Source of the DNA: Escherichia phage vB_EcoM_G50
Direction: 5' to 3' (one strand)
Length of the DNA stretch: 64,000 bases
Sequence record: NC_054917.1
Shown here: piece by piece, positions 292-58,234 of the stretch
Position numbering within the stretch: the first letter of the stretch is position 1
Layout: the number at the start of each line of letters is the position of its first letter
The notes under the pieces: generated by a model
Database searches by the model: none
Told to the model about the DNA's origin: nothing
The model's input: the letters and a program-made list of their open reading frames with translations, nothing else
Made by a program: the position numbers and the translations under genes

Positions 292-308
292 TTTAGTTGT
301 TTTTATGG

Positions 309-316
309 TATAAATA
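309..316 (+). promoter_or_regulatory. Late promoter (TATAAATA) for gene 24
   Basis: Exact TATAAATA ~28 nt upstream of gene 24 ATG. Confidence 0.6.
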
Positions 317-343
317 AATCATATAAACCAAAAGGAAAGCGCA

Positions 344-1627: not shown

Positions 1628-1633
1628 AACAAA

Positions 1634-1656
1634 GGGACCAAAAGGTCCCTTTTTAT
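1634..1656. terminator. Bidirectional terminator hairpin between gene 24 and rnlB
   Basis: gggacc-aaaa-ggtccc flanked by A-run and T-run between convergent genes. Confidence 0.55.
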
Positions 1657-2661
1657 TTAACTTACCAATTCAATCCAAGCCGGACGAAGTACATCTTGTA
1701 CCATTTTAACTAATTCCTTTTTAATCAAAGAAGGATTATCTGCTTGAGTTAGAGTAATACCTTCACGAGAAGTTTCTTCCAAAATATCTTGAACAGTTAG
1801 TCCCATCACCTTTCCAAAATCTTTTGGACCAATTTCGCCAATTTTAGAAATAACGTTATTTACCCGGTTCAGTGTAACGTAGCAAGCTAAAATTCCCAGC
1901 AATTTATTATCAGCTTCTGACAGCTCAACTTTAGCTTTAATAGGCTTATCAGACTTTTTCTTTTCGCTAAATTTAGAGTTCTTGCATTTAATAGCTACAC
2001 GATTGCCATTAGGCATCCAAGAAGGATAACAAGGTTTCAATACATAACCTTCAGCGGTAAATACTTCGCCTTTTGCTTCGGCATTCCAGACGCATTTATT
2101 TGCATCAACTAATCCAGCATGGTCTACTGTAAAATTATAATCTTGGACGACAGAATCTAAATCATTTGGCAATTTAATAAGCTCTTCAAATTTACCGCGA
2201 CCTAAAAGTGGAGCCATTTTAAATTTAAATGTATTACAGAATGATTCCATCATATAATCATCGACATAAGTCACATCACCACTTTCGGTAGTAACAATAA
2301 TGTCAAATACATAAAAATCTTTATCACCATAATCGACATTCTTCTGAATGCCAGGTCCAGCAAATTCGCCAAAGACTTGATAAGATACAACTGCCGAAGT
2401 TTCCATAATATCTTGTACTGCTTTAATGGAATCAGCGTAATTCTTTAGAATAATTTCATACCCAAAGAAATCTTCAGCAGGAAGAATCGGTCCAGTACGT
2501 TTAGCACAAGTTGCTTTATCGCGTTCAATAATCAGTGAGAAATTTGTGCCATGAATCTTTTCACGAGCTACCCATTCGCCGCCAGTCAATCCTAAACTGT
2601 AAAGTTTTTCAATGAATTTAGAATTGTAATGATTTTCAAGACTGCTATACTTTTTAAACAT
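1657..2661 (-). CDS. rnlB: RNA ligase 2 (Rnl2)
   Basis: 334 aa, [19 protein letters not shown]..., KIHGTNFS nucleotidyltransferase motif I; matches T4 Rnl2 length and sequence. Confidence 0.95.
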
Positions 2662-2670
2662 AATTAATCC

Positions 2671-2949
2671 TCAAAATGTAATTTCTAACCAATCACCATC
2701 ACGCTGATCACTATTGACTTTAAAGCTAAATCCTTCTTTTCTCAGCCAATCACCAATTTCTTCAGTAATCAATTTATCGCGAGCAGTACAATAATAACTA
2801 AAATATGTTTTACCTTGTTCAGCTGCTTTATTAGCAAGTTCCGAAAAATCTTTAATAAAACACTCTAGCTTGAACTGCTTACTTTTAAGTGCTTTTTCGC
2901 GTAATTGATTAGCAAAAGATTCATTTTCATAAAGATCATACTGTTCCAT
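2671..2949 (-). CDS. Hypothetical protein (T4 24.2 position)
   Basis: 92-aa ORF, compact packing between rnlB and hoc, same strand. Confidence 0.65.
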   Translation of the reverse strand: MEQYDLYENESFANQLREKALKSKQFKLECFIKDFSELANKAAEQGKTYFSYYCTARDKLITEEIGDWLRKEGFSFKVNSDQRDGDWLEITF

Positions 2950-3151
2950 TTTTCACCTTTTTATTGATATGTCTTTTTCTATAGACAACTTTTTCTCGAG
3001 TCTCAAATTTATTCTTAGCAGTCATAGCTCGAGCCCATAATACAGCCACTTCTTTCGCCTGTAAATTCAATTCACGAGCAATTTCAATGAATGACTTTCC
3101 AGACTCATGGAGTGTAAACACCACAACCTCAGTTCTCATAATCAATCTCAT
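2936..3151 (-). CDS. Hypothetical small basic protein with possible helix-turn-helix (T4 24.3 position)
   Basis: 71-aa ORF; segment SGKSFIEIARELNLQAKEVAVLW resembles an HTH; overlaps downstream ORF by 14 nt. Confidence 0.55.
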   Translation of the reverse strand: MRLIMRTEVVVFTLHESGKSFIEIARELNLQAKEVAVLWARAMTAKNKFETREKVVYRKRHINKKVKNGTV

Positions 3152-3204
3152 GTTATCGAGTTGGTGCCATTATATACATCGTTTTCTGATTGTGTTTTGT
3201 GTGC

Positions 3205-3234
3205 TTTCAAAATGAAGAAAGGGGCCGAAGCCCC
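3205..3234 (-). terminator. Terminator hairpin downstream of hoc
   Basis: ggggc-cgaa-gcccc followed on minus strand by T-rich tract. Confidence 0.5.
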
Positions 3235-3239
3235 TGAGA

Positions 3240-4400
3240 TTATGGATAGGTATAGATGATACCAGTTTCTAAAGCAGTTTTATGAATGATGTATCCATTA
3301 CGCGATTCTTGAACATCAACTTCTGGATAGTCTTTCATCATCTTCTGAAGAGTGTAACGATGCAGGTAGTATTTACTATCTGGATCTTCAGTTTTCCAAT
3401 CTTTACCTTCTTCAGTCATTTTTTGGATTTCATCCATAACCCACCAACCGCACCAGATATAAGCTGAAGTACGATGTGGAAGAGGATGAACATAAGGCAA
3501 TTCACCTTCCGGTTCCGGAGCAACTTTATCAGTTACCTGAACTTGACCTTCTGCTGTAATAGTTTTGCTATCATAATCAGTGGCAGTAACAGTTGCAGTA
3601 ACTTCAATGGTTTGACTTCCAATAGATGATGTATCAACGGTGTATACATTAGTTGACCCTTCTACAGGAGAAGAATCTTTCTTCCATGAATACGTAATTT
3701 GTGCTTCTTCTGGAGCATCCGTAACGTTAGCAGTAAATGTAGCCGAAGCATCTTGCTGAACATTAATAGAAGGAGGAGTCAATGTAACCTGTGGATTCAT
3801 TGTCTTTTTATTAACCGTTAATGATACTTCATTAGAAGTAACTTCCTTTTCATTATCTTCATTAGAAGTAACTTCCTTTTCATTATAATTTTCTGCAGTT
3901 ACTTGGGCTACACACTTAATTGTTTTAACTCCGCTTGTGGAAGGAGTGTAATTGAATGTAGCAGAAGTTGCTTCGCCTACAGGAGAACCGTCAACGTACC
4001 ATTGATACGTAGCAGTTGCGCCAGATGGCTGTGAAGCTAAGGCAGCAGTAAATTCAACGGCTGTTCCGATTACTCCTTCTGGAGGACTATTAGGAGTTAC
4101 AGCTAAGGTAGTTGTTTGTGTCTTATTTTGAACTGTGATAGTTGTAGTAGCTTCTGCTGTTTCAGCATCAGTATCTGGGACTGGGTTTGTTGCAACTACT
4201 TTAATAGTCTTTTGACCGGCAGGTCCTTTTAATACATAATTAAAAGTTGCTTCAGCTCCATCTTGTGGAAAATCATCTACAGTCCAAGCATATGTAATAG
4301 GTCCATCTCCAGTTTGACCACTGGGTGTAGCAGTAAACTGCTTAGTTTCATCAATAACCCCTGTCGGTGTTTTAGGAGTTATATCAACTGTAAAAGCCAT
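3240..4400 (-). CDS. hoc: Highly immunogenic outer capsid protein Hoc (Ig-like domains), carrying an in-frame 10-aa tandem duplication
   Basis: 386 aa; MAFTVDITPKTPTGVIDETKQFTATPSGQ... and C-terminal ...YVHPLPHRTSAYIWCGWWVMDEIQKMTEEGKDWK match T4 Hoc (376 aa as I recall). Confidence 0.9.
   Translation of the reverse strand: MAFTVDITPKTPTGVIDETKQFTATPSGQTGDGPITYAWTVDDFPQDGAEATFNYVLKGPAGQKTIKVVATNPVPDTDAETAEATTTITVQNKTQTTTLAVTPNSPPEGVIGTAVEFTAALASQPSGATATYQWYVDGSPVGEATSATFNYTPSTSGVKTIKCVAQVTAENYNEKEVTSNEDNEKEVTSNEVSLTVNKKTMNPQVTLTPPSINVQQDASATFTANVTDAPEEAQITYSWKKDSSPVEGSTNVYTVDTSSIGSQTIEVTATVTATDYDSKTITAEGQVQVTDKVAPEPEGELPYVHPLPHRTSAYIWCGWWVMDEIQKMTEEGKDWKTEDPDSKYYLHRYTLQKMMKDYPEVDVQESRNGYIIHKTALETGIIYTYP
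3827..3886 (-). repeat. Perfect 30-bp tandem duplication (2 copies) inside hoc, encoding NEKEVTSNED twice
   Basis: cttcattagaagtaacttccttttcattat at 3827-3856 repeated exactly at 3857-3886. Confidence 0.9.
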
Positions 4401-4409
4401 AAGTTATCC

Positions 4410-5090
4410 TTATTTTAATGTTACGAAAGAAGAATTGCGTGTTTCACGAATTAAAACTGATCCGTCGCGGTTAATGTAATAAATTAAGCTAAATAAAGTT
4501 TGGTGTGCTGACGCATGTTCAAAACTAGTTGGGTGAGATTTCCAATCCGGAGTTTCAGCAATCCATTGATAAATCCACCAAGGAACAGTGCAGAATCCTG
4601 GATTTTTTCCAATCAGCTGAAGATTTGGGCTAAAGTTTTCCGGAAGAGTAAATACAGACAGCTTTTCAGATTCAATAATCTCAGCTACAGCCTGCTCGAA
4701 TTTTTCTTCAACAAAAGGAGTATCTTCAATCAAAACATCGGTATTTTCAGGAATTTTATCCGTTTCTACTACTTCAATTTTAATGTCAGATTTAACCGGA
4801 GAATCAATCAGAAGTGCTGCCTCTGGATTGACTTCTTCATCGTCATATTTTAATCCGTCTGCAGCATCAGCAGCATCAATTAAGTCTTTAATAGATAACC
4901 CATCAGTCTCTGGCATAGGTTCACTAGCGAGCTGCTGGAGGGCTTCTTCAATATCAACAACGATATTATCAAAAGATTTATTCTTTTTGACTTTTATACC
5001 AAACTGTTCAGCATATTCAGCTAATTTAGCCTTAGCTTCTTTATTATCATCAAGAGCCTTCAGCTCTGCAATATAATCTTTATCTATCAT
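4410..5090 (-). CDS. inh: Acidic protein at the T4 inh position (inhibitor of prohead protease gp21)
   Basis: 226-aa acidic ORF between hoc and uvsW as in T4; identity by position and size, not verified residue by residue. Confidence 0.7.
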   Translation of the reverse strand: MIDKDYIAELKALDDNKEAKAKLAEYAEQFGIKVKKNKSFDNIVVDIEEALQQLASEPMPETDGLSIKDLIDAADAADGLKYDDEEVNPEAALLIDSPVKSDIKIEVVETDKIPENTDVLIEDTPFVEEKFEQAVAEIIESEKLSVFTLPENFSPNLQLIGKNPGFCTVPWWIYQWIAETPDWKSHPTSFEHASAHQTLFSLIYYINRDGSVLIRETRNSSFVTLK

Positions 5091-44510: not shown

Positions 44511-47500
44511 ATGGCCGAGATTAAAAGAAAGTTCAGAGCAGAAGATGGTCTGGACGCAGGTGGCGATAAAATAATCAACGTAGCTTTAGCTGATCGTACC
44601 GTAGGAACTGACGGTGTTAACGTTGATTACCTAATTCAAGAAAACACAGTTCAACAATACGATCCAACTCGTGGATATTTAAAAGATTTTGTAATCATTT
44701 ATGATAACCGCTTTTGGGCTGCTATAAATGATATTCCAAAACCGGCAGGAACTTTTAATAGTGGACGCTGGAGAGCATTGCGTACTGATGCTAACTGGAT
44801 CACAGTCTCATCTGGTTCATATCAATTAAAATCCGGTGAAGCTATTTCGGTTAACACTGCAGCTGGTAATGATATTACATTTACTTTACCATCTTCCCCA
44901 ATTGACGGTGATACTATCGTTCTCCAAGATATTGGAGGAAAACCTGGAGTTAACCAAGTTTTAATTGTAGCTCCAGTGCAAAGTATTGTAAACTTCAGAG
45001 GTGAACAAGTACGATCAGTACTAATGACTCATCCAAAATCACAGTTGGTTTTAATTTTTAGTAATCGTCTGTGGCAAATGTATGTTGCTGATTATAGTAG
45101 AGAAGCTGTAATTGCGACACCAGCGAATACTTATCAAGCGCAATCCAATGATTTTATCGTACGTAGATTTACTTCTGCCGCACCGATTAATATTAAACTT
45201 CCGAGATTTGCTAATCACGGTGATATTATTAATTTCGTCGATTTGGACAAATTAAATCCACTTTATCATACAATTGTCACAACATACGATGAAACTACTT
45301 CAGTACAAGAAGATGGAACTCATTCTATTGAAGGCCGTACATCAATTGACGGTTTCTTGATGTATGATGATAATGAAAAATTGTGGAGATTGTTTGACGG
45401 GGACAGTAAAGCACGTTTACGTATTATAACGACTAATTCAAACATTCGTCCAAATGAAGAAGTTATGGTATTTGGTGCGAATAATGGAATAACTCAAACA
45501 ATTGAACTCCAGCTTCCAACTAATATTTCTGTTGGTGATACTGTTAAAATTTCCATGAATTACATGAGAAAAGGACAAACAGTTAAAATCAAAGCTGCCG
45601 GTGAAGATAAAATTGCTTCTTCAGTTCAATTGCTGCAATTCCCAAAACGTTCAGAATATCCGCCTGAAGCTGAATGGGTGACTGTTCAAGAATTAGTTTT
45701 TAACGGTGAAACTAATTATGTTCCAGTTTTACAACTTGCTTATATAGAAGATTCTGACGGAAAATACTGGGTAGTACAGCAAAACGTTCCAACCGTAGAA
45801 AGAGTTGATTCTTTAAATGATTCTACTAGAGCGAGATTAGGCGTAATTGCTTTAGCTACACAAGCTCAAGCTAACGTCGATTTAGAAAATTCTCCGCAAA
45901 AAGAATTAGCAATTACACCAGAAACATTAGCTAACCGTACTGCTACAGAAACTCGCAGAGGTATCGCAAGAATAGCAACAACTGCTCAAGTGAATCAGAA
46001 CACCACATTCTCTTTTGCTGACGATATTATCATCACTCCTAAAAAGCTGAATGAAAGAACTGCTACAGAAACTCGCAGAGGCGTTGCTGAAATTGCTACG
46101 CAACAGGAAACTAATGCAGGTACTGATGATACTACAATCATCACTCCTAAAAAGCTTCAAGCTCGACAAGGTTCTGAATCATTATCAGGTATTGTAACCT
46201 TTGTATCTACTACAGGAGCTACTCCAGCTTCTAGTCGTGAATTAAATGGTACAAACGTTTATAATAAAAACACTAATAATTTAGTCGTTTCGCCTAAAGC
46301 TTTGGATCAGTATAAAGCTACTCCAACGCAACAAGGTGCAGTAATTTTAGCAGTTGAAAGTGAAGTAATTGCTGGACAAAGCCAAGAAGGATGGGCAAAT
46401 GCGGTTGTAACGCCAGAAACGTTACACAAAAAGACATCGACTGATGGAAGAATTGGTTTAATTGAAATTGCTACGCAAAGTGAAGTTAATACAGGAACTG
46501 ATTATACTCGTGCAGTCACTCCTAAAACTTTAAATGACCGTATAGCAACTGAAAGTTTAAGTGGTATAGCTGAAATTGCTACGCAAGTTGAATTCGACGC
46601 AGGCGTCGACGATACTCGTATCTCTACACCATTAAAAATTAAAACCAGATTTAATAGTACTGATCGTACTTCTGTTGTTGCTCTATCTGGATTAGTTGAA
46701 TCAGGAACTCTCTGGGACCATTATACCCTTAATATTCTTGAAGCAAATGAGACACAGCGTGGTACACTTCGTGTAGCTACACAAGTTGAAGCTGCTGCAG
46801 GAACATTAGATAATGTTTTAATAACTCCTAAAAAGCTTTTAGGTACTAAATCTACCGAATCGCAGGAAGGTGTTATTAAAGTTGCAACTCAGTCTGAAAC
46901 TGTAACTGGAACGTCAGCAAATACTGCTGTATCTCCAAAAAATTTAAAATGGATTGTGCAGAGTGAACCTACTTGGGCAGCTACTACTGCGATAAGAGGT
47001 TTTGTTAAAACTTCATCCGGTTCAATTACATTCGTTGGTAATGATACAGTTGGTTCTACACAGAGCTTAGAGCTATACGAGAAAAATAGCTATGCAGTAT
47101 CACCGTACGAATTAAACCGTGTATTAGCAAATTATTTGCCGTTAAAAGCAAAAGCCGCTGACGCGAATTTATTAGATGGTCTAGATTCATCCCAGTTCAT
47201 TCGTAGGGATATTGCACAGACGGTTAATGGTTCACTAACCTTAACCCAACAAACGAATCTAAGTGCCCCTCTTGTATCATCTAGTACTGCTACGTTTGGT
47301 GGATCAGTTTCGGCAAATAGTACATTAACTATTTCTAATACTGGAACGGCAACTCGTCTGATTTTTGAGAAAGGACCTCAAACTGGAACTAACCCAGTAC
47401 AGACGATGACTATCAGAGTTTGGGGAAATCAGTTTGGTGGCGGTTCAGATACAACACGTTCTACTGTATTTGAAGTTGGTGATGAAACGTCTAATCACTT

Positions 47501-48380
47501 TTATTCTCAACGTAATAAAGCTGGGAATATAACGTTTAGTATCAATGGTACTGTAATGCCGATAAATGTTAACGCTTCAGGTTCTTTGAATGCGAATGGC
47601 GTTGCAACATTTGGTAGTTCAGTTACTGCTAATGGTGAATTCATCAGCAAGTCTGCAAATGCTTTTAGAGCAATAAGTGGTAATTATGGATTCTTTATTC
47701 GCAATGATGCTGCTAACACCTATTTTATGCTCACTGCATCGGGTGATCAGACTGGCGGATTTAATGGATTACGTCCTTTAGCTATTAATAATGCATCTGG
47801 TCAAGTAACGATTGGTGAAAGCTTAATCATTGCCAAAGGTGCTACTATAAATTCAGGTGGTTTAACTGTTAACTCGAGAATTCGTTCTCAGGGCACTAAA
47901 ACATCTGACTTATATACCCGTGCGCCAACATCTGATACCGTAGGATTCTGGTCAATTGACATTAATGATTCAGCTACTTATAATCAGTTCCCAGGTTATT
48001 TTAAAATGGTTGAAAAAACTAATGAAGTGACTGGACTTCCATACTTAGAACGTGGTGAAGAAGTTAAATCTCCTGGTACATTGACTCAGTTTGGTAACAC
48101 ACTTGATTCGCTTTACCAAGATTGGATTACTTATCCAACGACTCCAGAAGCGCGTACCACTCGCTGGACACGCACATGGCAGAAAACCAAAAACTCCTGG
48201 TCAAGTTTTGTTCAGGTATTTGATGGAGGTAACCCTCCTCAACCGTCTGATATCGGTGCTTTACCATCTGATAATGCTACAATGGGGAATCTTACTATTC
48301 GTGATTTCTTACGAATTGGTAATGTTCGCATTATTCCTGACCCAGTGAATAAAACGGTTAAATTTGAATGGGTTGAATAA
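44511..48380 (+). CDS. 34: Long tail fibre proximal subunit gp34
   Basis: 1289 aa, same length as T4 gp34; late promoter upstream. Confidence 0.95.
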   Translation: MAEIKRKFRAEDGLDAGGDKIINVALADRTVGTDGVNVDYLIQENTVQQYDPTRGYLKDFVIIYDNRFWAAINDIPKPAGTFNSGRWRALRTDANWITVSSGSYQLKSGEAISVNTAAGNDITFTLPSSPIDGDTIVLQDIGGKPGVNQVLIVAPVQSIVNFRGEQVRSVLMTHPKSQLVLIFSNRLWQMYVADYSREAVIATPANTYQAQSNDFIVRRFTSAAPINIKLPRFANHGDIINFVDLDKLNPLYHTIVTTYDETTSVQEDGTHSIEGRTSIDGFLMYDDNEKLWRLFDGDSKARLRIITTNSNIRPNEEVMVFGANNGITQTIELQLPTNISVGDTVKISMNYMRKGQTVKIKAAGEDKIASSVQLLQFPKRSEYPPEAEWVTVQELVFNGETNYVPVLQLAYIEDSDGKYWVVQQNVPTVERVDSLNDSTRARLGVIALATQAQANVDLENSPQKELAITPETLANRTATETRRGIARIATTAQVNQNTTFSFADDIIITPKKLNERTATETRRGVAEIATQQETNAGTDDTTIITPKKLQARQGSESLSGIVTFVSTTGATPASSRELNGTNVYNKNTNNLVVSPKALDQYKATPTQQGAVILAVESEVIAGQSQEGWANAVVTPETLHKKTSTDGRIGLIEIATQSEVNTGTDYTRAVTPKTLNDRIATESLSGIAEIATQVEFDAGVDDTRISTPLKIKTRFNSTDRTSVVALSGLVESGTLWDHYTLNILEANETQRGTLRVATQVEAAAGTLDNVLITPKKLLGTKSTESQEGVIKVATQSETVTGTSANTAVSPKNLKWIVQSEPTWAATTAIRGFVKTSSGSITFVGNDTVGSTQSLELYEKNSYAVSPYELNRVLANYLPLKAKAADANLLDGLDSSQFIRRDIAQTVNGSLTLTQQTNLSAPLVSSSTATFGGSVSANSTLTISNTGTATRLIFEKGPQTGTNPVQTMTIRVWGNQFGGGSDTTRSTVFEVGDETSNHFYSQRNKAGNITFSINGTVMPINVNASGSLNANGVATFGSSVTANGEFISKSANAFRAISGNYGFFIRNDAANTYFMLTASGDQTGGFNGLRPLAINNASGQVTIGESLIIAKGATINSGGLTVNSRIRSQGTKTSDLYTRAPTSDTVGFWSIDINDSATYNQFPGYFKMVEKTNEVTGLPYLERGEEVKSPGTLTQFGNTLDSLYQDWITYPTTPEARTTRWTRTWQKTKNSWSSFVQVFDGGNPPQPSDIGALPSDNATMGNLTIRDFLRIGNVRIIPDPVNKTVKFEWVE

Positions 48381-48388
48381 GAGGTATT

Positions 48389-49504
48389 ATGGAAAAATTT
48401 ATGGCAGAGTTTGGACAAGGATACGTCCAAACGCCATTTTTATCGGAAAGTAATTCAGTAAGATATAAAATAAGTATAGCGGGTTCTTGCCCGCTTTCTA
48501 CTGCAGGACCATACGTTAAATTTCAGGATAATCCTGTCGGAAATCAAACATTTAACGCAGGTCTTCATTTAAGAGTTTTTGACCCTTCCACAGGAGCATT
48601 AGTTGATAGTAAGTCATATGCTTTTTCGACTTCAAATGATACTACATCAGCTGCTTTTGTTAGTTTCATGAATTCTTTGGCGAATAATAGACTTGTTGCT
48701 ATATTAACTAGCGGAAAGGTTAATTTTCCTCCTGAAGTAGTATCTTGGCTAAGAGCCGCAGGAACGTCTGCTTTTCCATCTGATTCTATATTGTCAAGAT
48801 TCGACGTATCATATGCTGCTTTTTACACTTCTTCTAAAAGAGCTATTGCATTAGAGCATGTTAAATTAAGTAATAGAAAAAGCACAGATGATTATCAAAC
48901 TATTTTAGATGTTGTATTTGACAGTTTAGAAGATGTTGGAGCTACCGGCTTTCCAAGAAGAACATATGAAAGCATCGAGCAATTTATGTCAGCAGTCGGT
49001 GGAACTAATAACGAAATTGCGCGATTGCCAACTTCAGCTGCCATAAGTAAATTATCTGACTATAATTTAATCCCTGGTGATGTTCTTTATCTTAAAGCAC
49101 AGTTATATGCTGATGCCGATTTACTTGCGCTTGGAACCACAAATATATCTATCCGTTTTTATAACGCATCAAATGGATATATTTCTTCAACACAAGCTGA
49201 GTTTACCGGACAAGCTGGGTCTTGGGAATTAAAGGAAGATTATGTAGTTGTTCCAGAAAACGCTGTGGGATTTACGATATATGCACAAAGAACTGCACAA
49301 GCTGGTCAAGGTGGCATGAGAAATTTAAGCTTTTCTGAAGTGTCAAGAAATGGAGGTATTTCGAAACCTGCTGAATTTGGCGTCAACGGCATTCGCGTTA
49401 ATTATATCTGTGAATCTGCTTCACCTCCGGATATAATGGTACTTCCTACACAAGCATCGTCTAAAACTGGTAAAGTGTTTGGGCAAGAATTTAGAGAAGT
49501 ATAA
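48389..49504 (+). CDS. 35: Long tail fibre hinge protein gp35
   Basis: 371 aa; GAGG Shine-Dalgarno; position as T4 gp35. Confidence 0.9.
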   Translation: MEKFMAEFGQGYVQTPFLSESNSVRYKISIAGSCPLSTAGPYVKFQDNPVGNQTFNAGLHLRVFDPSTGALVDSKSYAFSTSNDTTSAAFVSFMNSLANNRLVAILTSGKVNFPPEVVSWLRAAGTSAFPSDSILSRFDVSYAAFYTSSKRAIALEHVKLSNRKSTDDYQTILDVVFDSLEDVGATGFPRRTYESIEQFMSAVGGTNNEIARLPTSAAISKLSDYNLIPGDVLYLKAQLYADADLLALGTTNISIRFYNASNGYISSTQAEFTGQAGSWELKEDYVVVPENAVGFTIYAQRTAQAGQGGMRNLSFSEVSRNGGISKPAEFGVNGIRVNYICESASPPDIMVLPTQASSKTGKVFGQEFREV

Positions 49505-49509
49505 ATTGA

Positions 49510-49527
49510 GGGAGCCTTCGGGTTCCC
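49510..49527 (+). terminator. Terminator hairpin after gene 35
   Basis: gggagcc-ttcg-ggttccc followed by TTTTTCTTT. Confidence 0.55.
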
Positions 49528-49535
49528 TTTTTCTT

Positions 49536-49543
49536 TATAAATA
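49536..49543 (+). promoter_or_regulatory. Late promoter (TATAAATA) for gene 36
   Basis: Exact TATAAATA ~24 nt upstream of gene 36 ATG. Confidence 0.6.
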
Positions 49544-49566
49544 CTATTAAAATAAAGGGGCATACA

Positions 49567-50232
49567 ATGGCTGATTTAAAAGTAGGTTCAACAACCGGAG
49601 GCTCTGTCATTTGGCATCAAGGAAATTTTCCATTGAATCCAGCCGGTGACGATGTACTCTATAAATCATTTAAAATATATTCAGAATACAATAAACCACA
49701 AGCTGCTGATAACGATTTCGTTTCTAAAGCTAATGGTGGTACTTATGCGTCAAAGGTAACATTTAACAGTGGCGTGCAAATACCATATGCTATAAACAAC
49801 ACAAACCAAAGCGGTATTTATCCTGGCAATGGTGATGCTGCTACTTTTGATACAGCAAATATTGATATTGTTTCATGGTATGGCATTGGTTTTAAATCAT
49901 CGCAAGGATCTGCAGGTAGAACTGTTGTTGTTAACACTCGTACTGGTGATATCAGCACTAAGGGTGGTATTTATGCAATCGGACCCGTCCGTTCTAACGT
50001 TACCGCTCCAGTTGCAGCAAATGATCTTACTAGAAAAGACTATGTTGATGGAGCAATAAATACTGTTACGGCAAATGCGAACTCTAGAGTGTTACGATCT
50101 GGTGACACTATGACGGGAAACTTAACCGCACCAAACTTTTTCTCGCAGAATCCTGCATCTCAACCTTCACATGTTCCACGATTTGACCAAATCGTAATTA
50201 AGGATTCTGTTCAAGATTTCGGCTATTATTAA
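49567..50232 (+). CDS. 36: Long tail fibre distal connector gp36
   Basis: 221 aa, size as T4 gp36; late promoter and terminator hairpin upstream. Confidence 0.9.
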   Translation: MADLKVGSTTGGSVIWHQGNFPLNPAGDDVLYKSFKIYSEYNKPQAADNDFVSKANGGTYASKVTFNSGVQIPYAINNTNQSGIYPGNGDAATFDTANIDIVSWYGIGFKSSQGSAGRTVVVNTRTGDISTKGGIYAIGPVRSNVTAPVAANDLTRKDYVDGAINTVTANANSRVLRSGDTMTGNLTAPNFFSQNPASQPSHVPRFDQIVIKDSVQDFGYY

Positions 50233-50240
50233 GAGGACTT

Positions 50241-53200
50241 ATGGCTACTTTAAAACAAATACAATTTAAAAGAAGCAAAACCGCAGGTGCACGTCCTGCT
50301 GCTTCAGTATTAGCCGAAGGTGAATTGGCTATAAACTTAAAAGATAGAACAATTTTTACTAAAGATGATTCAGGAAATATCATTGACTTAAGCATTTCCG
50401 CTGGCGGTAATATCAGTGGTAATATCACTCAAACTGGTGATTATACACAGACTGGAAAATTTAATTTAATTGGTCCGCAAATTGTAGCAAGCGGTGGATA
50501 TATTGAGTTTAATTATCGTACTACTGGAAGTGGGGTTTGGTCCGGTCAACACACTGCAAAAGCTCCAATTTTTGTAGATTTAAGCTCAGCTACTTCCACA
50601 TCTGAATATAATCCTATAATTAAACAGCGCTTTAAAGACGGAACTTTTTCATTAGGTACTTTAGTTTCTGAAGGTTCGTTGAAGATTCATTATATTGATG
50701 AAACTGGTCAATCTAAATATTGGACATTTGCGCGCTCAGGTAATTTTCAAGTTGATTCTGGTAATTTATTAGTATCTGGTGGGTATTTAGTCGCTCAGAG
50801 TAATATTGAAACAAGAACAGGTTCTTTGATTGGTCCATCTGTTGTAACTAAAAATATTTCATTTGATACGAAAGCGTTTGGACAATACGATTCGCAGTCA
50901 TTAGTTCAATATGTTTATCCTGGAACAGGCGAAGAAAATGGTATAAACTATCTTCGTAAAGTTCGAGCTAAATCAGGTGGAACTATTTACCATGAAATTG
51001 CTTCTGCGCAGACTGGTAAGAATGATGAAATTTCTTGGTGGACCGGAAACTCGCTTACCACTAAATTAATGGGTCTTCGTAATGATGGCGCAATGGTATT
51101 ACGTCGTTCACTTGCTATTGGCACAATTACCGCTGATGAAAATACTAACAACTATGGTTCTCCTACTCCAATGGGAGAAAGATATATTGCTTTGGGTGAT
51201 GCTGCAACCGGTTTAAAATATATTAAGCAAGGTGTTTATGATTTAGTAGGTAATTGGAATTCTGTTGCTTCTATTACTCCTGATAGTTTCCGTAGTACTC
51301 GTAAAGCATTATTTGGACGTTCAGAAGATCAAGGCGGAACCTGGACAATGCCTGGAACGAACGCTGCTCTCTTGTCTGTTCAAACCCAGGCAGATGTGAA
51401 TAACGCAGGCGATGGTCAAACCCACATTGGATATAATTCTGGCGGTAAATTTTCCCATTATTTCCGCGGTAAAGGCCAAACCAACATTAATACACAGGAA
51501 GGTATGGAAATTAACCCTGGTATTTTGAAATTGGTAACTGGCTCTAATAACGTACAGTTTTATGCTAATGGAACAGTATCTTCAATACAAAGAATTAAAT
51601 TTGATAACGGATTAGTTCTTACTGGTGCTAGACCTGACGGTATTCAACTTGACGCTCCTACATCAGCAGATGGCACTAAAACTATACTGTGGGCTGGTGG
51701 TACTCGCGCAGGTCAGAATAAAAGTTATGTATCTATTAAAGCGTGGGGTAATTCATTTAACGCATCTGGCGATCGTGCTCGTGAAACAGTTTTTGAAGTG
51801 GCTGACGGGCAGGGATATTATTTTTATGCACAACGCACTACTCCTGCATCAGGTCAAACAGTAGGTCCGGTTAACTTTAAATTTAACGGAACTGTCGAAA
51901 CAGGCCATATCATAGGCCTTGGAAATATAAGTGCCTCCGGTACAGGTTCTTTTGGTGGCAATGTTACCATGTCTAACGGTTTGTTTGTCCAAGGTGGTTC
52001 TTCTATTACTGGACAAGTTAAAATCGGCGGAACATCAGATGCATTAAGAATTTGGAATGCTGAATATGGTGCTATTTTCCGTCGTTCTGAAGATAAGTTT
52101 TATATTATTCCAACCCCACAGAATGCGGGTGAATCAGGCGGCATTTCTAATTTACGTCCGTTCTATATTGCATTAAGTAATGGTAAAGTTTCCATGGATC
52201 ATGATGTAGATATCGGCGGCGGTAGATTTAAAGTAGAAGTGGCTGGAACTACTTCTAATCAACGTATAACACTAAATATGGCATCAGATGCTATTAGAAT
52301 AAATGCTCCAACGCAAGAGTCTTCTAACTTCATCCAAGGACGTAAAGCAGATGTCCCAAAATGGTATTTGGGTATTGGCGATGGCGGAAACGTCGTTCGT
52401 ATGCATAGTTACACTTACTCCCATGGTATTGCATTAAACTCTGATACTGTCGATATTACTAAGCCCCTTAAAATTAATAATATTCGAATTGGTACAGATG
52501 GCAACATCACAGGTGGTACTGATAATTTTGCCAACTTAAATACAACGTTAAATCGTAAAGTTAATTCTGGATTTATTACTTATGGAGCAACTGCTGGATG
52601 GTATAAGTTTGCAACAGTAACAATGCCACAATCCACTTCTACAGTCTTCTTTAAAATAGCCGGTGGTTCTGGATTTAATAGCGGATTATTCACACAGTGC
52701 AATATTGCTGAAATTGTTTTACGTACTAGTAATGAAAGACCTGCTGACTTAAATGCTGTATTATACACAAGAACAATTGCAGCTGCATTTAAAAATATTG
52801 CAGTTAATAACGTCTCTGGAGATACATATGACATTTATGTTTATGCCGGAACATATTGCAATCAATTAACTTGTGAATGGTCATGTACCGAAAATGCTGC
52901 TGTTAGCGTTATTGGTATTAACTCATCGACCCAATCACCTGTGGATGCTCTTCCAGATACAGCAGTTGATGGGCAAGTTGCTAATGTTCTTAATAACTTG
53001 GTTGATCGCGGCAAAGGTAAGCGTTATGAAGCCGATTCTGAAATAGCTATTAATAGCCAAACTGGTATTCGTATTAGAAGCAACAGCGATAAAACTGGTT
53101 CTGTTGCTACAATGCTACGAAATGATGGCGGTAGTTTTTATATTCTGTTTACAGATAAAAATGCCACCGATGGCGAAGCGACTGTTAACGGTGAATGGAA

Positions 53201-53996
53201 TAGTAAGCGTCCTTTCGCTATTAACTTAACAACCGGTGAAGTGATGATGAATAATGGCATAGCTGTTCGCAGCGCTGCTTTATTCTATAATAGCATAAAC
53301 GTCAAAGATAATGGTTCTATTAACTTTGATAAATCAGGTGCTAACCCGAGAAATATGAGAATATTTCATGCTGGCGATGCTTCTCGCGGTAACCGTATTG
53401 AAATTGCCGATGAAACTAACTATATTGCTTACTTTGAAAAAGCTCCAGGTGGAGCTAACCGCTTTGTAGTAAATAATGCTACTGTAGCTGGTGTTAACCA
53501 AATGAATTCATTTGGTATTAATATCAATAACGCACTTGGTGGAAATAGTATAGCATTTGGTGATAGCGATACTGGTATTAAGCAAAATGGCGATGGATTA
53601 TTAGACATATATGCGAACAGCGTACAAGTATTCCGTTTCCAAAACGGTGATTTGTACTCATACAAAAATATAAATGCTCCAAACGTTTATATTCGTTCTG
53701 ATATTCGTTTAAAATCCAACTTTAAACCTATCGAAAATGCACTTGATAAAGTTGAAAAACTTAACGGTGTCATTTACGATAAAGCTGAATACATTGGTGG
53801 AGAGGCAATTGAAACTGAAGCGGGTATTGTGGCTCAAACGCTACAAGACGTTTTACCAGAAGCTGTCCGTGAAACAGAAGACAGTAAGGGTAATAAAATA
53901 CTCACTGTTTCTTCTCAAGCCCAGATTGCTCTTCTGGTTGAAGCTGTGAAAACACTTTCTGCTCGTGTAAAAGAACTTGAATCTAAACTTATGTAA
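50241..53996 (+). CDS. 37: Long tail fibre distal subunit gp37, T2-type with C-terminal intramolecular chaperone domain
   Basis: 1251 aa (T4 gp37 is ~1026 as I recall); N-terminal [43 protein letters not shown] conserved; C-terminal ~100 aa begin with SDIRLK (S74-like Ser/Lys autocleavage motif). Confidence 0.9.
   Translation: [1251 protein letters not shown]
53697..53993 (+). other. Predicted intramolecular chaperone / autoproteolytic (peptidase S74-like) C-terminal domain of gp37
   Basis: Motif [28 protein letters not shown]... followed by helical C-terminus, as in endosialidase and T5 pb1 IMC domains. Confidence 0.6.
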
Positions 53997-53997
53997 A

Positions 53998-54015
53998 AGA
54001 GGGCTTCGGCCCTCT
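53998..54015 (+). terminator. Hairpin between genes 37 and 38 (possible attenuator)
   Basis: agagggc-ttcg-gccctct immediately after gene 37 stop; weak T-tract. Confidence 0.4.
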
Positions 54016-54026
54016 AAGGATTTTTA

Positions 54027-54818
54027 ATGGCAATTGTAGGTGTTCCTGGCTGGATTGGCGAATCTGCCGTGAATGAAACTGGACAACGTTGGATGGATGC
54101 TGCAATGAAAGCAGTTCGCGTTTCAGTTCCTGGTTGGATGAGCTCAATGGCTGGACAATCTAAAGAAGTATATTACAGTATTGGTGCTAGCAATTCTTAT
54201 AATAAAGACACGCTAATAAATTGGATAAAAGCCCAAGGAAGCACTCCTGTTGTTATTACAATTACAGGCAATATCGTTTCTTCATCGACAGGTCAACCAT
54301 GCTTAGATTTTCCTAGCTCATTAACTAATGCATACGTTACCTTAAACATTAATAGTGGGGTTCATGTATTAGGTCGGGGAGGAAATGGCGGAAGTAACTC
54401 TGCTGGTAGAGCAGGCGGAACTGCAATAAATAACGGAATTGGAACTCGTTTAAGAATAAACAATAATGGTATTATTGGCGGTGGCGGCGGTGGCGGCGCA
54501 GGCGCTAGATACAATCCTTTCCCTCAAATGGATATGATATTTGGCGGTGGCGGAGGTCGTCCATTTGGTGCAGCCGGTGCAGCTGGAGGCGGTGCCGCGG
54601 CAGCATCGGCTGGTACAATTTCTGCTCCTGGTAAAGGCACTGTTTCTGGGGTTCACCACGGAGGAGATGGTGGAGATTTGGGAGCTGCTGGCAAATCTTC
54701 ATATATTCAAGGCGGTACTGGAGGAACTATTTACTCGGGTGGCGCTGCTGGTAAAGCTGTTACTGGAAACGCTCCAACTTGGACTAAAGTTGGTACAATA
54801 TATGGTGCAAGGGTATAA
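54027..54818 (+). CDS. 38: Receptor-recognising adhesin gp38, T2-type with glycine-rich motifs
   Basis: 263 aa (T4 gp38 chaperone is 183 aa); poly-Gly tracts IIGGGGGGGAGA, FGGGGGRPFGAAGAAGGGAAAAS separated by variable segments. Confidence 0.88.
   Translation: MAIVGVPGWIGESAVNETGQRWMDAAMKAVRVSVPGWMSSMAGQSKEVYYSIGASNSYNKDTLINWIKAQGSTPVVITITGNIVSSSTGQPCLDFPSSLTNAYVTLNINSGVHVLGRGGNGGSNSAGRAGGTAINNGIGTRLRINNNGIIGGGGGGGAGARYNPFPQMDMIFGGGGGRPFGAAGAAGGGAAAASAGTISAPGKGTVSGVHHGGDGGDLGAAGKSSYIQGGTGGTIYSGGAAGKAVTGNAPTWTKVGTIYGARV
54478..54600 (+). repeat. GGN-codon low-complexity repeats encoding the glycine-rich motifs of gp38
   Basis: Runs of ggcggtggcggcggtggcggcgcaggc and ggcggtggcggaggt; these generate the spurious overlapping ORFs in other frames. 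Confidence 0.7.
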
Positions 54819-54849
54819 TTTTGAATAAATATCCTTAAAAGGAGGGTCT

Positions 54850-55506
54850 ATGGCAGCACCTAGAATATCATTTTCGCCCTCTGATATTCTGTTGGGTGTT
54901 CTAGATCGCTTGTTCAAAGATAACGCTACCGGGAAAGTTCTTGCTTCCCGGGTAGCTGTCGTAATTCTTTTGTTTATAATGGCGATTGTTTGGTATAGGG
55001 GAGATAGTTTCTTTGAGTACTATAAGCAATCAAAGTATGAAACATACAGTGAAATTATTGAAAAGGAAAGAAATGCACGCTTTGAATCTGTCGCCCTGGA
55101 ACAACTCCAGATAGTTCACATATCATCTGAGGCAGACTTTAGTGCGGTGTATTCTTTCCGCCCTAAAAACTTAAACTATTTTGTTGATATTATAGCATAT
55201 GAAGGAAAATTACCTTCAACAATAAGTGAAAAATCACTTGGAGGATATCCTGTTGATAAAACTATGGATGAATACACAGTTCATTTAAATGGACGTCATT
55301 ATTATTCCAACTCAAAATTTGCTTTTTTACCAACTAAAAAGCCTACTCCCGAAATAAATTACATGTACAGTTGTCCATATTTTAATTTGGATAACATCTA
55401 TGCTGGAACAATAACCATGTACTGGTATAGAAATGATCATATAAGTAATGACCGCCTTGAATCAATATGTTCTCAGGCGGCCAGAATATTAGGAAGGGCT
55501 AAATAA
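54850..55506 (+). CDS. t: Holin T
   Basis: 218 aa, MAAPRISFSPSDILLGVLDRLFKDNATGKVLASRVAVVILLFIMAIVWYRG...; single TM near N-terminus with large periplasmic domain; matches T4 T. Confidence 0.95.
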   Translation: MAAPRISFSPSDILLGVLDRLFKDNATGKVLASRVAVVILLFIMAIVWYRGDSFFEYYKQSKYETYSEIIEKERNARFESVALEQLQIVHISSEADFSAVYSFRPKNLNYFVDIIAYEGKLPSTISEKSLGGYPVDKTMDEYTVHLNGRHYYSNSKFAFLPTKKPTPEINYMYSCPYFNLDNIYAGTITMYWYRNDHISNDRLESICSQAARILGRAK

Positions 55507-55779
55507 TTATTTGTTTGTATACATCTCTAGATATCGATATACACCCTCAAAACCCTCGTTGAATTCGTCGATGAGGGTTTTCTTATCTTCTTGAGTTAAT
55601 TCAGAAACAATTTTACGGAATGAATTCTGATTTAACTTTCTACCTTCATGCGTTACTCCAATCTCATTCAGAAATGCAATAAAATTAGCACGATTCTCAA
55701 CAATATCTTCTCTGGAAAATTTAATCAAAATAGACGCAACAGTAATAATTTCACGAACTGTATCAATGTTTTTATTCAT
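55507..55779 (-). CDS. asiA: Anti-sigma-70 factor AsiA
   Basis: 90 aa, MNKNIDTVREIITVASILIKFSREDIVENRANFIAFLNEIGVTHEGRKLNQNSFRKIVSELTQEDKKTLIDEFNEGFEGVYRYLEMYTNK. Confidence 0.95.
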   Translation of the reverse strand: MNKNIDTVREIITVASILIKFSREDIVENRANFIAFLNEIGVTHEGRKLNQNSFRKIVSELTQEDKKTLIDEFNEGFEGVYRYLEMYTNK

Positions 55780-55791
55780 TAACTATACCAC

Positions 55792-55944
55792 TCAATTAGT
55801 TGACTTTATTATAATATCATCAGACACTTGATTTGTAAACTGGTCTGTGTTATTTTCTTCAAAAATTTTTTCTACGAATTCTTTGAACGACTCACGTTCC
55901 TGAGCTACATTATGCTCGATTACCTTTTCAAGATTATGACTCAT
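55792..55944 (-). CDS. Small acidic ORF (~50 aa)
   Basis: ATG overlaps stop of upstream ORF (ATGA); MSHNLEKVIEHNVAQERESFKEFVEKIFEENNTDQFTN...; below ORF-track cutoff. Confidence 0.4.
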   Translation of the reverse strand: MSHNLEKVIEHNVAQERESFKEFVEKIFEENNTDQFTNQVSDDIIIKSTN

Positions 55945-56219
55945 TCGAAATAATCTTCAATTTCGTAATCATGGACGTAAATCATTATAGTTTTTAATAC
56001 ATCATCAATACTTTTTCCTGGAGCTGGAATTACGTAAAAATATCCCGCCTTTGAGTTATCTTTATAAGTTCCAACCAAGAAATCATTATTCTCAAGATGT
56101 AGTTCTTCAACTAATTCATCGACAATTGAGTGGTATAAATTTGGTAGAAACTTATATAGCTTTTCTAGAATATCAATTTTGATTGTATATTGAACCACAG
56201 ATTGAGAATCAATAATCAT
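55941..56219 (-). CDS. arn: Arn-position protein (T4 Arn is an anti-restriction DNA mimic)
   Basis: 92-aa acidic ORF next to asiA; call by position, size and acidity only. Confidence 0.6.
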   Translation of the reverse strand: MIIDSQSVVQYTIKIDILEKLYKFLPNLYHSIVDELVEELHLENNDFLVGTYKDNSKAGYFYVIPAPGKSIDDVLKTIMIYVHDYEIEDYFE

Positions 56220-56302
56220 AGACCTTCCCCTTATGTTTCTGTTTGCGATTAGATTCTTTAAACGCTTTCTTCTTATCCTTATGGACAGAAGCTCTATTAA
56301 AA

Positions 56303-56521
56303 TTATGTTTTGCGACTAAATTGTTCATAATGCTGAATTACCTCTCTTAAACATTTGCATGTGAATGAAAACTTTTTAGCTACACCACATTCAAATATAT
56401 GTTCTCTTAAATCACGTGTGTCAGTATATCCCATCTCAACGATAAAATGCCGTATTAGATTTTTATCTTTATCATTGAGAGAATTAAAATAATCGGATTT
56501 TGAATTAATTTCCCTGGCCAA
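56303..56521 (-). CDS. Hypothetical protein
   Basis: 72-aa ORF. Confidence 0.55.
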   Translation of the reverse strand: MAREINSKSDYFNSLNDKDKNLIRHFIVEMGYTDTRDLREHIFECGVAKKFSFTCKCLREVIQHYEQFSRKT

Positions 56522-56801
56522 ATTGAATCACCTTCAGTTGACGTTTTAGTTCTTTTATCATTTCTTCGTTCATCGCAATATAAAGATCGCGTAAAGCAGG
56601 TTTTAGCATTCCATTTACTGGAGAACTAAATGGACATACATAATCTTTTCCTACGAGCTTTTTAGTGAATTCCATATTACAGAACTGAAATGCCGGTTCA
56701 TTGGCATAAATTCCCCATTTGGTTGACATCATTTTATTGGCATATTCCAATGCCTGGATTTGATTCATAATTCCATCAATTTGAAACTTTTTAATATTCA
56801 T
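56505..56801 (-). CDS. Hypothetical protein
   Basis: 98-aa ORF. Confidence 0.6.
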   Translation of the reverse strand: MNIKKFQIDGIMNQIQALEYANKMMSTKWGIYANEPAFQFCNMEFTKKLVGKDYVCPFSSPVNGMLKPALRDLYIAMNEEMIKELKRQLKVIQFGQGN

Positions 56802-57262
56802 TAGTAAAGGTCCTCAGAGTAAAGTTCTTTTTCACTACCACCACGTTCAATACGTACTTGTCCAGCGTAAGTTGCAATAATCATTGCTTCTTCACGTGTC
56901 CAATAATTACTATATTGGTCAATAAATCCTTGGTCATCATCACAAACTTGCTGAGTAACTAATTGAGGTTTAACTACATCTAAAACTGCTGCCATATCTT
57001 TAGAATAATGACGAGCACCTGGAATAACAAGAGTTCGTCCATCTTTTAATTTAAAACGGTTGGCTGCACAAACAATTCGTCGTTGATACTTTTGGTTTTC
57101 ATCCCAGTATGCAGACTGCCAACAGATTTCAGGAACTTCTTTTAGAATATCTTCTTCTGCGCATTTATAACCATGCGCTTTAAATTTTTCAGCAAGACTT
57201 TCTGGAGTTTCACGAGATAAAGGAACATTTAGCATTTTTAAACGATTAATAAATGGGTTCAT
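56801..57262 (-). CDS. Hypothetical protein
   Basis: 153-aa ORF. Confidence 0.65.
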
Positions 57263-57588
57263 TTAAACCATCCTTTAATACGCTGCCATAAAGTTTTCTG
57301 CTGAGCTTTGTTAACACCAATTGAGCGAATAACTGGTTGAGATTCTTGGAATTCTTTATAATCAGCCAGGTAAATTTCGTAAGCTGAATCTGTAAAGGAA
57401 CTTATCGCTGCCATGAAATTATTGCGAATACCTACTGGAGCATCTTTACTTTCACGAATAATCATGTATTTGCCAGTCTTAATCTTTACGATAGTTCCAA
57501 GATAAGCCCCGTGGTACCAGATGTCCCAACCCTCTTGAGTGGGTTCTGCGCAACGACGAAGTTCATTGATAATTTCTAACTTGTTCAT
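57259..57588 (-). CDS. Hypothetical protein
   Basis: 109-aa ORF. Confidence 0.6.
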
Positions 57589-57598
57589 TATTTATTCC

Positions 57599-58234
57599 TC
57601 ACAGTTCAGATGCCACGATGATTACAGCTTCAATGTTTTCTGCCGAGCGTTTAATGTCAAGATACACATTACCGTTTTTAGCGATTTTACATGACATTCC
57701 GATATCAGTAAATTTCTGAATATGATGTTCCATCATTTTGTATCCAAAAATTCGCATATTTCCATTGTTGTTAATTTCAAAATTGCGAATTCCGTGAGTG
57801 CGTTTTTCTAAAATAGCGAGATAGTTACTACGATAAGTTTCAACCTTTTTAAGAACAAATCCATTTTCATCTAAAAGTTTTAACATAAAGTCTTTATCTT
57901 CTTCCATATCAGAAGTAATCTCGCGAGCTTTACGAGTTGCTCGTTTTTTAAGTAGTTCAGGAGCATTTTCCTGCGCATATAAAGTTGCTGCATTTGAAAT
58001 AATATCCTGAGCTTCACCTGTAATGATTAATCCATCACCAGATTTCTCCACCAGGCCTTTTTTAATCAATACCCCAATATTACTATTAACTACTGCATTA
58101 CCTAAATCTGGATGCACCTCACGAACTTCTGCAGCTGTAATGAAATCTTTCTTAGCAATGGTAATTAAAATCGCAGCAGTTTTTTCATTCAGAACATCGT
58201 TAGAAGCTTTGATGATGTAAGTTACTTTAGACAT
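57599..58234 (-). CDS. motA: Middle-mode transcription activator MotA
   Basis: 211 aa, MSKVTYIIKASNDVLNEKTAAILITIAKKDFITAAEVREVHPDLG...; matches T4 MotA. Confidence 0.95.
   Translation of the reverse strand: MSKVTYIIKASNDVLNEKTAAILITIAKKDFITAAEVREVHPDLGNAVVNSNIGVLIKKGLVEKSGDGLIITGEAQDIISNAATLYAQENAPELLKKRATRKAREITSDMEEDKDFMLKLLDENGFVLKKVETYRSNYLAILEKRTHGIRNFEINNNGNMRIFGYKMMEHHIQKFTDIGMSCKIAKNGNVYLDIKRSAENIEAVIIVASEL

Follow-up and report, generated by a model that had tools for sequence, protein, structure and literature searches.

A predicted T2-type receptor-binding module, with a cleavable gp37 chaperone domain and a gp38 tip adhesin, in the long tail fibre operon of Escherichia phage vB_EcoM_G50

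Which protein at the end of the long tail fibre would select the host in Escherichia phage vB_EcoM_G50, and how would it come to sit there? The question was addressed for genes 37 and 38 of a stretch of 64,000 nucleotides (nt) from record NC_054917.1, referred to below as the window, in whose coordinates all positions are given; features lie on the + strand unless stated otherwise. A first-pass annotation, made from the sequence alone, had read the two genes as a T2-type receptor-binding module, with a long gp37 carrying a self-cleaving chaperone domain and a glycine-rich gp38 adhesin. Gene 37 (50241–53996) encodes the long tail fibre distal subunit precursor (1251 amino acids (aa), 134.1 kDa) and gene 38 (54027–54818) the tail fibre tip adhesin (263 aa, 25.6 kDa), and both open reading frames (ORFs) were recovered exactly as annotated. 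Hundreds of homologues were found for each product among phage records, which excludes chance as the origin of the ORFs. The locus is very probably the distal receptor-binding module of a T-even (genus Tequatrovirus) long tail fibre of the T2/T6/S16 type, working as proposed below.

The Pfam profile Peptidase_S74 (PF13884) matched gp37 at aa 1153–1210 over its full length (profile positions 1–58 of 58; E-value (E) 2.7e-15; 56.8 bits against a Pfam cut-off of 22 bits). The profile starts at the SDIRLK motif with which the S74-like domain had been said to begin (residue 1153, codon TCT, nt 53697–53699), and the intramolecular chaperone and autocleavage domain so delimited spans aa 1153–1251 (nt 53697–53993; 99 aa, 10.8 kDa). 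Its Ser-x4-Lys dyad is intact (S1153, 53697–53699; K1158, 53712–53714); in an alignment of 35 S74-bearing homologues K1158 was invariant, and S1153 and D1154 were at least 90% conserved. The counterparts of the dyad are S911/K916 in the endosialidase endoNF and S587/K592 in MyRF, and mutation of either MyRF residue abolishes cleavage (PMC8326128). The SDxRxK motif stands 99 aa from the C-terminus in the window, T2 and Bas43 and somewhat further from it in S16 (112 aa) and T6 (113 aa), and the final 135 aa of gp37, comprising the chaperone and the predicted cut site, are 100% identical to T2 gp37. The C-terminal 217 residues matched the S16 gp37 crystal fragment 6f45_A (E 9e-13) and the MyRF ICA domain 7dc3 (E 0.002). 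An AlphaFold2 model of gp37 1095–1251 (mean predicted local distance difference test (pLDDT) 85.5, >90 over the chaperone domain) combined beta strands with a small alpha/beta core and ended in a long C-terminal helix (aa ~1225–1250; model residues 131–156). Its best PDB matches were 7dc3 (E 2.8e-6, template modelling (TM) score 0.57–0.64) and the endosialidase chaperone 3gw6 (E 6.4e-4), in keeping with the chaperone fold expected of the gp37 C-terminus.

For the S16 gp37, autocleavage of the last 113 residues at DLNVS^SDRRIKK follows trimerisation and exposes the gp38 docking face, and the fPS phages carry DVYIR^SDGRLKI at the corresponding position (PMC7917993). Cleavage of gp37 has been published for T2 and T6 too. 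The site in the window reads NVYIR^SDIRLKS and, because the C-terminus is 100% identical to that of T2 and the S16 homologue has been seen cleaved, a cut at R1152/S1153 is predicted, which would yield a 123.3-kDa mature chain and the 10.8-kDa fragment. The distal tip of the mature fibre (aa 1095–1152, nt 53523–53696), ending NVYIR and homologous to the S16 gp37 tip in 6f45_A, is by that analogy the predicted docking surface for gp38. The tip segment before the chaperone (GNSIAFGDSDTGIKQNGDGLLD...) was also 55–85% identical to many 'phage tail protein' fragments, all lacking an S74 domain, from prophages of E. coli, Shigella and Salmonella, and the sequence points to a fibre motif common to T-even and temperate phages.

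Gene 38 lies between the gp37 gene, with its predicted cleavable chaperone domain, and the holin gene t. Two Pfam families (both with a cut-off of 25 bits) cover its product nearly from end to end, namely Gp38_N (PF21721) at aa 1–42 (E 7e-18, 64.7 bits) and GP38 (PF05268) at aa 47–263 (E 2e-69, 234 bits), and gp38 aa 8–261 matched the S16 gp38 chain 6f45_D (E 1.4e-46). Identity was 98.1% to the gp38 of SA20RB and REP4, 97.3% to RB18 and 95.8% to Bas43 and AV114/AV115; it fell to 83% for QOTSP and teqhal, 61% for T2, 54% for T6 and 44–48% for S16. The exact protein was present on 9 public contigs. Structure prediction gave a model with pLDDT 92.5 and a predicted TM score of 0.87, for which a Foldseek search of the PDB returned 6f45_D (E 8e-23, TM score 0.78–0.83) and the PP01 gp38 receptor-binding domain 9v85 (E 5e-19), and nothing else below E 1. 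The predicted fold consists of a three-helix attachment domain, a beta-helix and a polyglycine-II sandwich. Comparison with the 183-aa T4 gp38 found no similarity (BLASTP E 49), and identity as a T4-type assembly chaperone was rejected on that result. By homology and by model, gp38 is a T2/T6/S16-type tip adhesin that would sit at the virion fibre tip and bind an outer-membrane receptor, as is known of homologues with 96% identity, and the first-pass annotation, which had set it apart from the T4 chaperone and within the T2 family, is borne out.

The attachment domain (Gp38_N, aa 1–42, nt 54027–54152) carries the tryptophans W9, W22 and W37, all three invariant in an alignment of 5 sequences, with W9 and W22 at least 90% conserved in one of 65; in S16 the three tryptophans of gp38 plug into three pockets of the gp37 trimer (PMC6851490). 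Glycine accounts for 60 of the 263 residues (23%), and for 32% within aa 110–263, with the longest runs G7 at 151–157 and G5 at 173–177. Variability was measured as column entropy over 65 homologues. The glycine-rich motifs (GRMs) had 0.26–0.99 bits and the segments 159–172, 185–211 and 223–237 had 2.1–2.6 bits, with a further variable patch holding insertion sites at 122–129; the alternation of poly-glycine motifs and variable segments that had been described is thus present. The protein fits the scheme of Trojet et al. (PMC3157838), of five glycine-rich motifs and four hypervariable segments (HVSs). GRM1 (GRGGNG) occupies aa 116–121 (nt 54372–54389) and is followed by the HVS1 region (aa 122–150, nt 54390–54476), whose variable part, 122–129, includes the window-specific R128 and is succeeded by a conserved beta-helix rung. 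GRM2 (GGGGGGGA, aa 151–158, nt 54477–54500) aligns with polyglycine-II helix 3 of S16 and precedes HVS2 (aa 159–172, nt 54501–54542; mean column entropy 2.6 bits). Next come GRM3 (GGGGGRPFGAAG, aa 173–184, nt 54543–54578), HVS3 (aa 185–211, nt 54579–54659), with a conserved GxG at 202–204, and GRM4 (GGDGGDLGAAG, aa 212–222, nt 54660–54692). HVS4 (aa 223–237, nt 54693–54737) holds the window-specific I235 and Y236, and GRM5 (aa 238–247, nt 54738–54767) leads into a conserved C-terminal motif at aa 248–263. Base composition is also distinctive here: GC content was 0.43–0.47 at 54000–54999 and ~0.35–0.40 in neighbouring genes, and GC skew reached +0.20 across gene 38, because Gly (GGN) and Ala (GCN) codons are dense in the specificity domain.

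Between the two genes, starting 2 nt past the gp37 stop, lies the hairpin that had been reported at 53998–54015 (AGAGGGC-UUCG-GCCCUCU), with a 7-bp stem and a C(UUCG)G tetraloop. In isolation it folded at −13.4 kcal/mol (z −2.8), and 2 of 200 shuffles folded as well. Directly 3' of it stand AAGGA, the Shine-Dalgarno sequence of gene 38 (54016–54020, 6 nt before the ATG), which the fold did not sequester, and then UUUUU; a terminator consensus scan flagged the site, with the U5 offset by 5 nt from the stem. The hairpin sequence is identical in T2, RB18, QOTSP, JLBYU22, teqhal and AV114, and hairpins stand at the same junction in T6 (AAGGGGC-UUU-GCCCCUU), S16 (AAGAGCC-UACG-GGCUCUU) and T4 (a stem around GGGGC-UUCG-GCCC). 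T4, in which neither the gp37 C-terminus nor gp38 is related to the T2 type, nevertheless has a C(UUCG)G hairpin at its 37/38 junction (L017, 4124–4145), so the hairpin stands as a feature of the locus and falls as a mark of the T2-type module. Hairpins with a UUCG tetraloop were originally reported from T4 mRNA (PMC4371310). The hairpin in the window fits that type, having a C-G-closed UUCG loop, a G+C-rich stem (GGGC-UUCG-GCCC) and a position between cistrons, and on sequence grounds it is a conserved T-even junction element. Counted on both strands of the window, CTTCGG occurred 35 times (49516–49521 and 54004–54009 are examples) against 14.1 ± 3.6 in shuffles, a 2.5-fold excess that 0 of 100 shuffles reached.

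The T4-type late promoter consensus TATAAATA was matched exactly at 49536–49543, upstream of gene 36. This is the sole exact match from gene 35 to gene t; the exact search gave none before gene 37 or gene 38, and a separate late promoter for gene 38 was dropped for that reason. We infer from the sequence that genes 36, 37 and 38 are co-transcribed from 49536. Since that is the only exact late promoter, gene 38 would be read through the 37/38 hairpin, and, with no separate late promoter to serve gene 38, termination at the hairpin would be incomplete; the element is most likely an mRNA decay barrier or a leaky terminator. Gp37 made from this transcript would trimerise into a beta-helical fibre, aided by its own C-terminal 99-residue chaperone, and after trimer formation the Ser1153/Lys1158 dyad would cut the chain, so that the chaperone leaves and a flat tip ending ...NVYIR is bared. 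To judge by the S16 crystal structure, a single gp38 would then be anchored there through its N-terminal three-helix domain, whose tryptophans W9, W22 and W37 would fill three equivalent pockets of the tip. The remainder of gp38 towards the C-terminus, a predicted beta-helix with its glycine-rich motifs extending as the polyglycine-II sandwich, would present the hypervariable segments as distal loops in contact with the primary receptor, most likely Tsx.

The nucleoside channel Tsx is the probable primary receptor of the window phage by analogy with its closest tested relatives, because gp38 is 95.8% identical to that of the Tsx-dependent phages Bas43 and AV114/AV115 and the receptor has been reported to be predictable from gp38 phylogeny (PMC12032242). 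For Bas43 (TadeuszReichstein) the listed primary receptor is Tsx and the listed terminal receptor the deep core of lipopolysaccharide (LPS) (Maffei 2021 supplement), and recognition of Tsx has been demonstrated for AV114 and AV115, which belong to Mosigvirus (PMC10844046). The Tsx dependence is experimental in both groups, which share the HVS2 and HVS3 motifs with the window; each gp38 differs from that of the window by 11 substitutions, R128 and I235/Y236 among them. The first-pass annotation had host range set by the gp38 loops. This holds for the choice of primary receptor and goes no further, as the LPS core and host defences also count.

Several points weigh against the proposed scheme. 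The cleavage, the docking stoichiometry and the choice of receptor proposed for the window phage are all carried over from homologues; R128 (HVS1) and I235/Y236 (HVS4) differ from RB18, Bas43, AV114 and SA20RB, and one to few HVS substitutions shifted the receptor in SV76 relative to T2 and in PST relative to T6 (PMC3157838); the hairpin in its 71-nt context folded unexceptionally (z −0.77), and a U5 run that begins 5 nt past the stem, with AAGGA between, is atypical for an intrinsic terminator. The substitutions bear on the chance, small yet worth keeping in mind, that the module is as described while allele-specific HVS changes have moved specificity to another receptor (OmpA, OmpF, OmpC, FadL or LPS), a shift for which AV108 is a further precedent, since its related gp38 differs in HVS3 and HVS4 and the phage uses OmpA (PMC10844046). 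The near-identity to two independently tested Tsx-dependent phage groups, HVS2 and HVS3 that are nearly unchanged relative to them, and the reported predictability of the receptor from gp38 phylogeny speak for Tsx instead. That gp38 is an assembly chaperone only, as in T4, and gp37 itself binds the receptor, is scarcely credible. Several database records do label gp38 homologues 'distal long tail fiber assembly catalyst' or 'tail assembly protein', but such labels are inherited annotation and not evidence; gp38 lacks similarity to T4 gp38, its predicted fold matches solved adhesins, and the two gp37 proteins are opposites in their domains, with Collar and Phage_fiber but not S74 in T4 and S74 but neither of the others in the window.

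Retention of the S74-like domain on the fibre as a degenerate, non-cleaving remnant is very improbable, given an unbroken Ser/Lys dyad, a Pfam profile matched from first to last position, complete identity over the domain to T2, whose gp37 is reported cleaved, and a chaperone fold predicted with confidence. The hairpin could also be a chance palindrome or a by-product of recombination with no RNA function, as its unremarkable fold energy in context would allow; a permissive Rfam scan of 49400–55900 returned no match, and the hairpin belongs to no curated RNA family. Because the 71-nt context was not significant, support for an RNA element comes from the isolated stem and from covariation across phages: the T6, S16 and T4 hairpins at the same junction have other stem sequences, with compensatory changes at 5 of the 7 stem pairs across T2-type, T6, S16 and T4. 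Together with the excess of CTTCGG in the window, this makes a functionless palindrome unlikely. More specifically, the hairpin and U5 might lower expression of gene 38 relative to gene 37 and so help to set a 3:1 gp37:gp38 stoichiometry at the tip, a doubtful proposal; were it true, conservation of the hairpin in T4 would be explained either by a dosage requirement common to the two module types or by a role as a fixed joint at which exchangeable modules recombine.

For the descent of the very probable T2/T6/S16-type module, the protein identity of gp37 to a panel of relatives was determined in 50-residue bins. Residues 1–150 were closest to T2, QOTSP and JLBYU22 (96–100% identity), with RB18 and teqhal about equal; 201–500 were closest to T2 (92–100%), 151–200 and 601–1100 to QOTSP and JLBYU22 (86–100%), and 1101–1251 to T2, RB18 and teqhal (98–100%). 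The segment 501–600 had no close panel member (at most 76% identity) and was the least panel-like; it overlaps a Gp34_trimer-like domain (PF21446; aa 508–643, nt 51762–52169, Pfam E 2.6e-9) that also resembles the C-terminal region of gp34. The other shaft domain recognised was gp37_trimer (PF20744; aa 684–758, nt 52290–52514, Pfam E 1.6e-10). For gp37 aa 440–720 the best DNA match was the Mosigvirus mar005p1 (94%). The best full-length gp37 match among 50,697 phage records was 86.7% identical, and the exact protein was not found in the public assembly index. The gp37 homologue of Shigella phage JK38 (L008, 301–4792) is annotated as two overlapping coding sequences (301–3021 and 3008–4792), an arrangement suggestive of a frameshift or of an error in the sequencing.

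At the DNA level a cassette at ~53520–54120 was ~82% identical to T2 in its first ~80 nt and 97–100% identical from ~53600 to ~54100, with DNA on either side diverged from T2 (35–63% identity). The cassette runs from the gp37 tip through the chaperone domain and the hairpin into the first ~30 codons of gp38, so that gp37 tip, chaperone and gp38 start, which by homology form the docking interface, are together in one unit. On a public, metagenome-derived contig (L010, Logan SRR30937726, 2092–6792) gene 38 was 100% identical at the nucleotide level, and gp37 (1292 aa) was 66% identical overall and 98–99% identical in the last ~150 residues. This pairing and the identity of the cassette to T2 indicate that the interface cassette travels with gp38 and is grafted onto different shafts. 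The module would have arisen by recombination in which the conserved cassette of tip, chaperone and gp38 N-terminus connects a gp37 shaft of mosaic origin with a gp38 specificity domain of RB18 type. Modular exchange in T-even fibres has been described already (PMC3157838); by the sequence comparisons, what is new here is only an unrecorded mosaic gp37 allele and its specific pairing of shaft and adhesin.

Among the closest known systems is T2 (also K3, Ox2 and RB18, the T2 subfamily of T-even long tail fibres), with which the locus shares gene order, an identical hairpin and gene 38 ribosome-binding site, and a nearly identical gp38 N-terminal domain. T2 gp37 is, however, longer (1341 aa), with shaft regions 551–750 and 1001–1100 only 14–30% identical, and the specificity domain in the window is of RB18/Bas43 type, with Tsx as the expected receptor as against the FadL of T2. 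The S16 tip (PDB 6F45; Dunne et al. 2018) has in common the S-D-x-R-x-K autocleavage motif, three-Trp docking, the beta-helix and the polyglycine-II sandwich, all as predicted on the side of the window; it differs in the identity of its gp38, in a chaperone of 112 rather than 99 aa, in a gp37 of 749 aa, and in host and receptor. Close likeness in gp38 does not extend to the shaft or to taxonomy: Bas43 gp37 has 1312 aa, and many of its 50-aa bins are 14–60% identical to the window, and AV114 is from the genus Mosigvirus. The K1F endoNF chaperone and MyRF ICA share the Ser-x4-Lys at the domain start, the C-terminal helix and the predicted fold match to 7dc3/3gw6, but release of the endoNF chaperone completes a tailspike, whereas in the window module release would create a dock for a separate adhesin. 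T4 has the same gene positions and shares the gp37 N-terminal part, the Gp34_trimer-like domain and the junction hairpin, while its gp37 bears a receptor-binding tip of its own (Collar, Phage_fiber) and its gp38 is the unrelated 183-aa chaperone.

The surrounding ORFs (list for 47000–58000) form a T-even long-tail-fibre operon on the + strand in the order gp34-gp35-gp36-gp37-gp38-t. The genes flanking 37 and 38 encode gp34 (44511–48380, 1289 aa), gp35 (48389–49504, 371 aa; Pfam ILEI), gp36 (49567–50232, 221 aa; Pfam Phage_T4_gp36) and holin t (54850–55506, 218 aa; Pfam Phage_holin_T); 3' of t the − strand carries asiA and then the early genes of the motA side. Elsewhere the DNA of the window was ~95% identical to several Tequatrovirus genomes, Hafnia phage IsaacDaniel and Escherichia phage FriedrichMiescher among them, which marks its source as a T4-like coliphage. 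Residues 58–123 of the hinge protein gp35 exceeded the curated cut-off for ILEI (PF15711, interleukin-like EMT inducer; E 4.9e-8), and ILEI was also recorded for gp35 of one public contig. A second UUCG hairpin (9 bp, −15.1 kcal/mol, z −3.9) lies directly 3' of gene 35, with a T-run after it and, further on, the TATAAATA consensus at 49536; hairpin and consensus, together at 49508–49543, look like a terminator-promoter pair dividing the gene 34–35 and gene 36–38 transcription units. Between the gene 38 stop and the ribosome-binding site of t, AATAAATA at 54824–54831 has 1 mismatch to the T4 late-promoter consensus and may be a promoter for t alone.

The module leaves the current understanding of T-even fibres unchanged. 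In practice it supplies a predicted receptor, Tsx, for a T-even phage that is otherwise uncharacterised. In addition, the locus offers a clean case of tail-fibre reshuffling, in which a cassette of ~600 nt is kept fixed and the shaft and the receptor-binding loops are exchanged on either side of it, and such cassette swapping would be useful for host-range engineering and for the choice of phages for cocktails.

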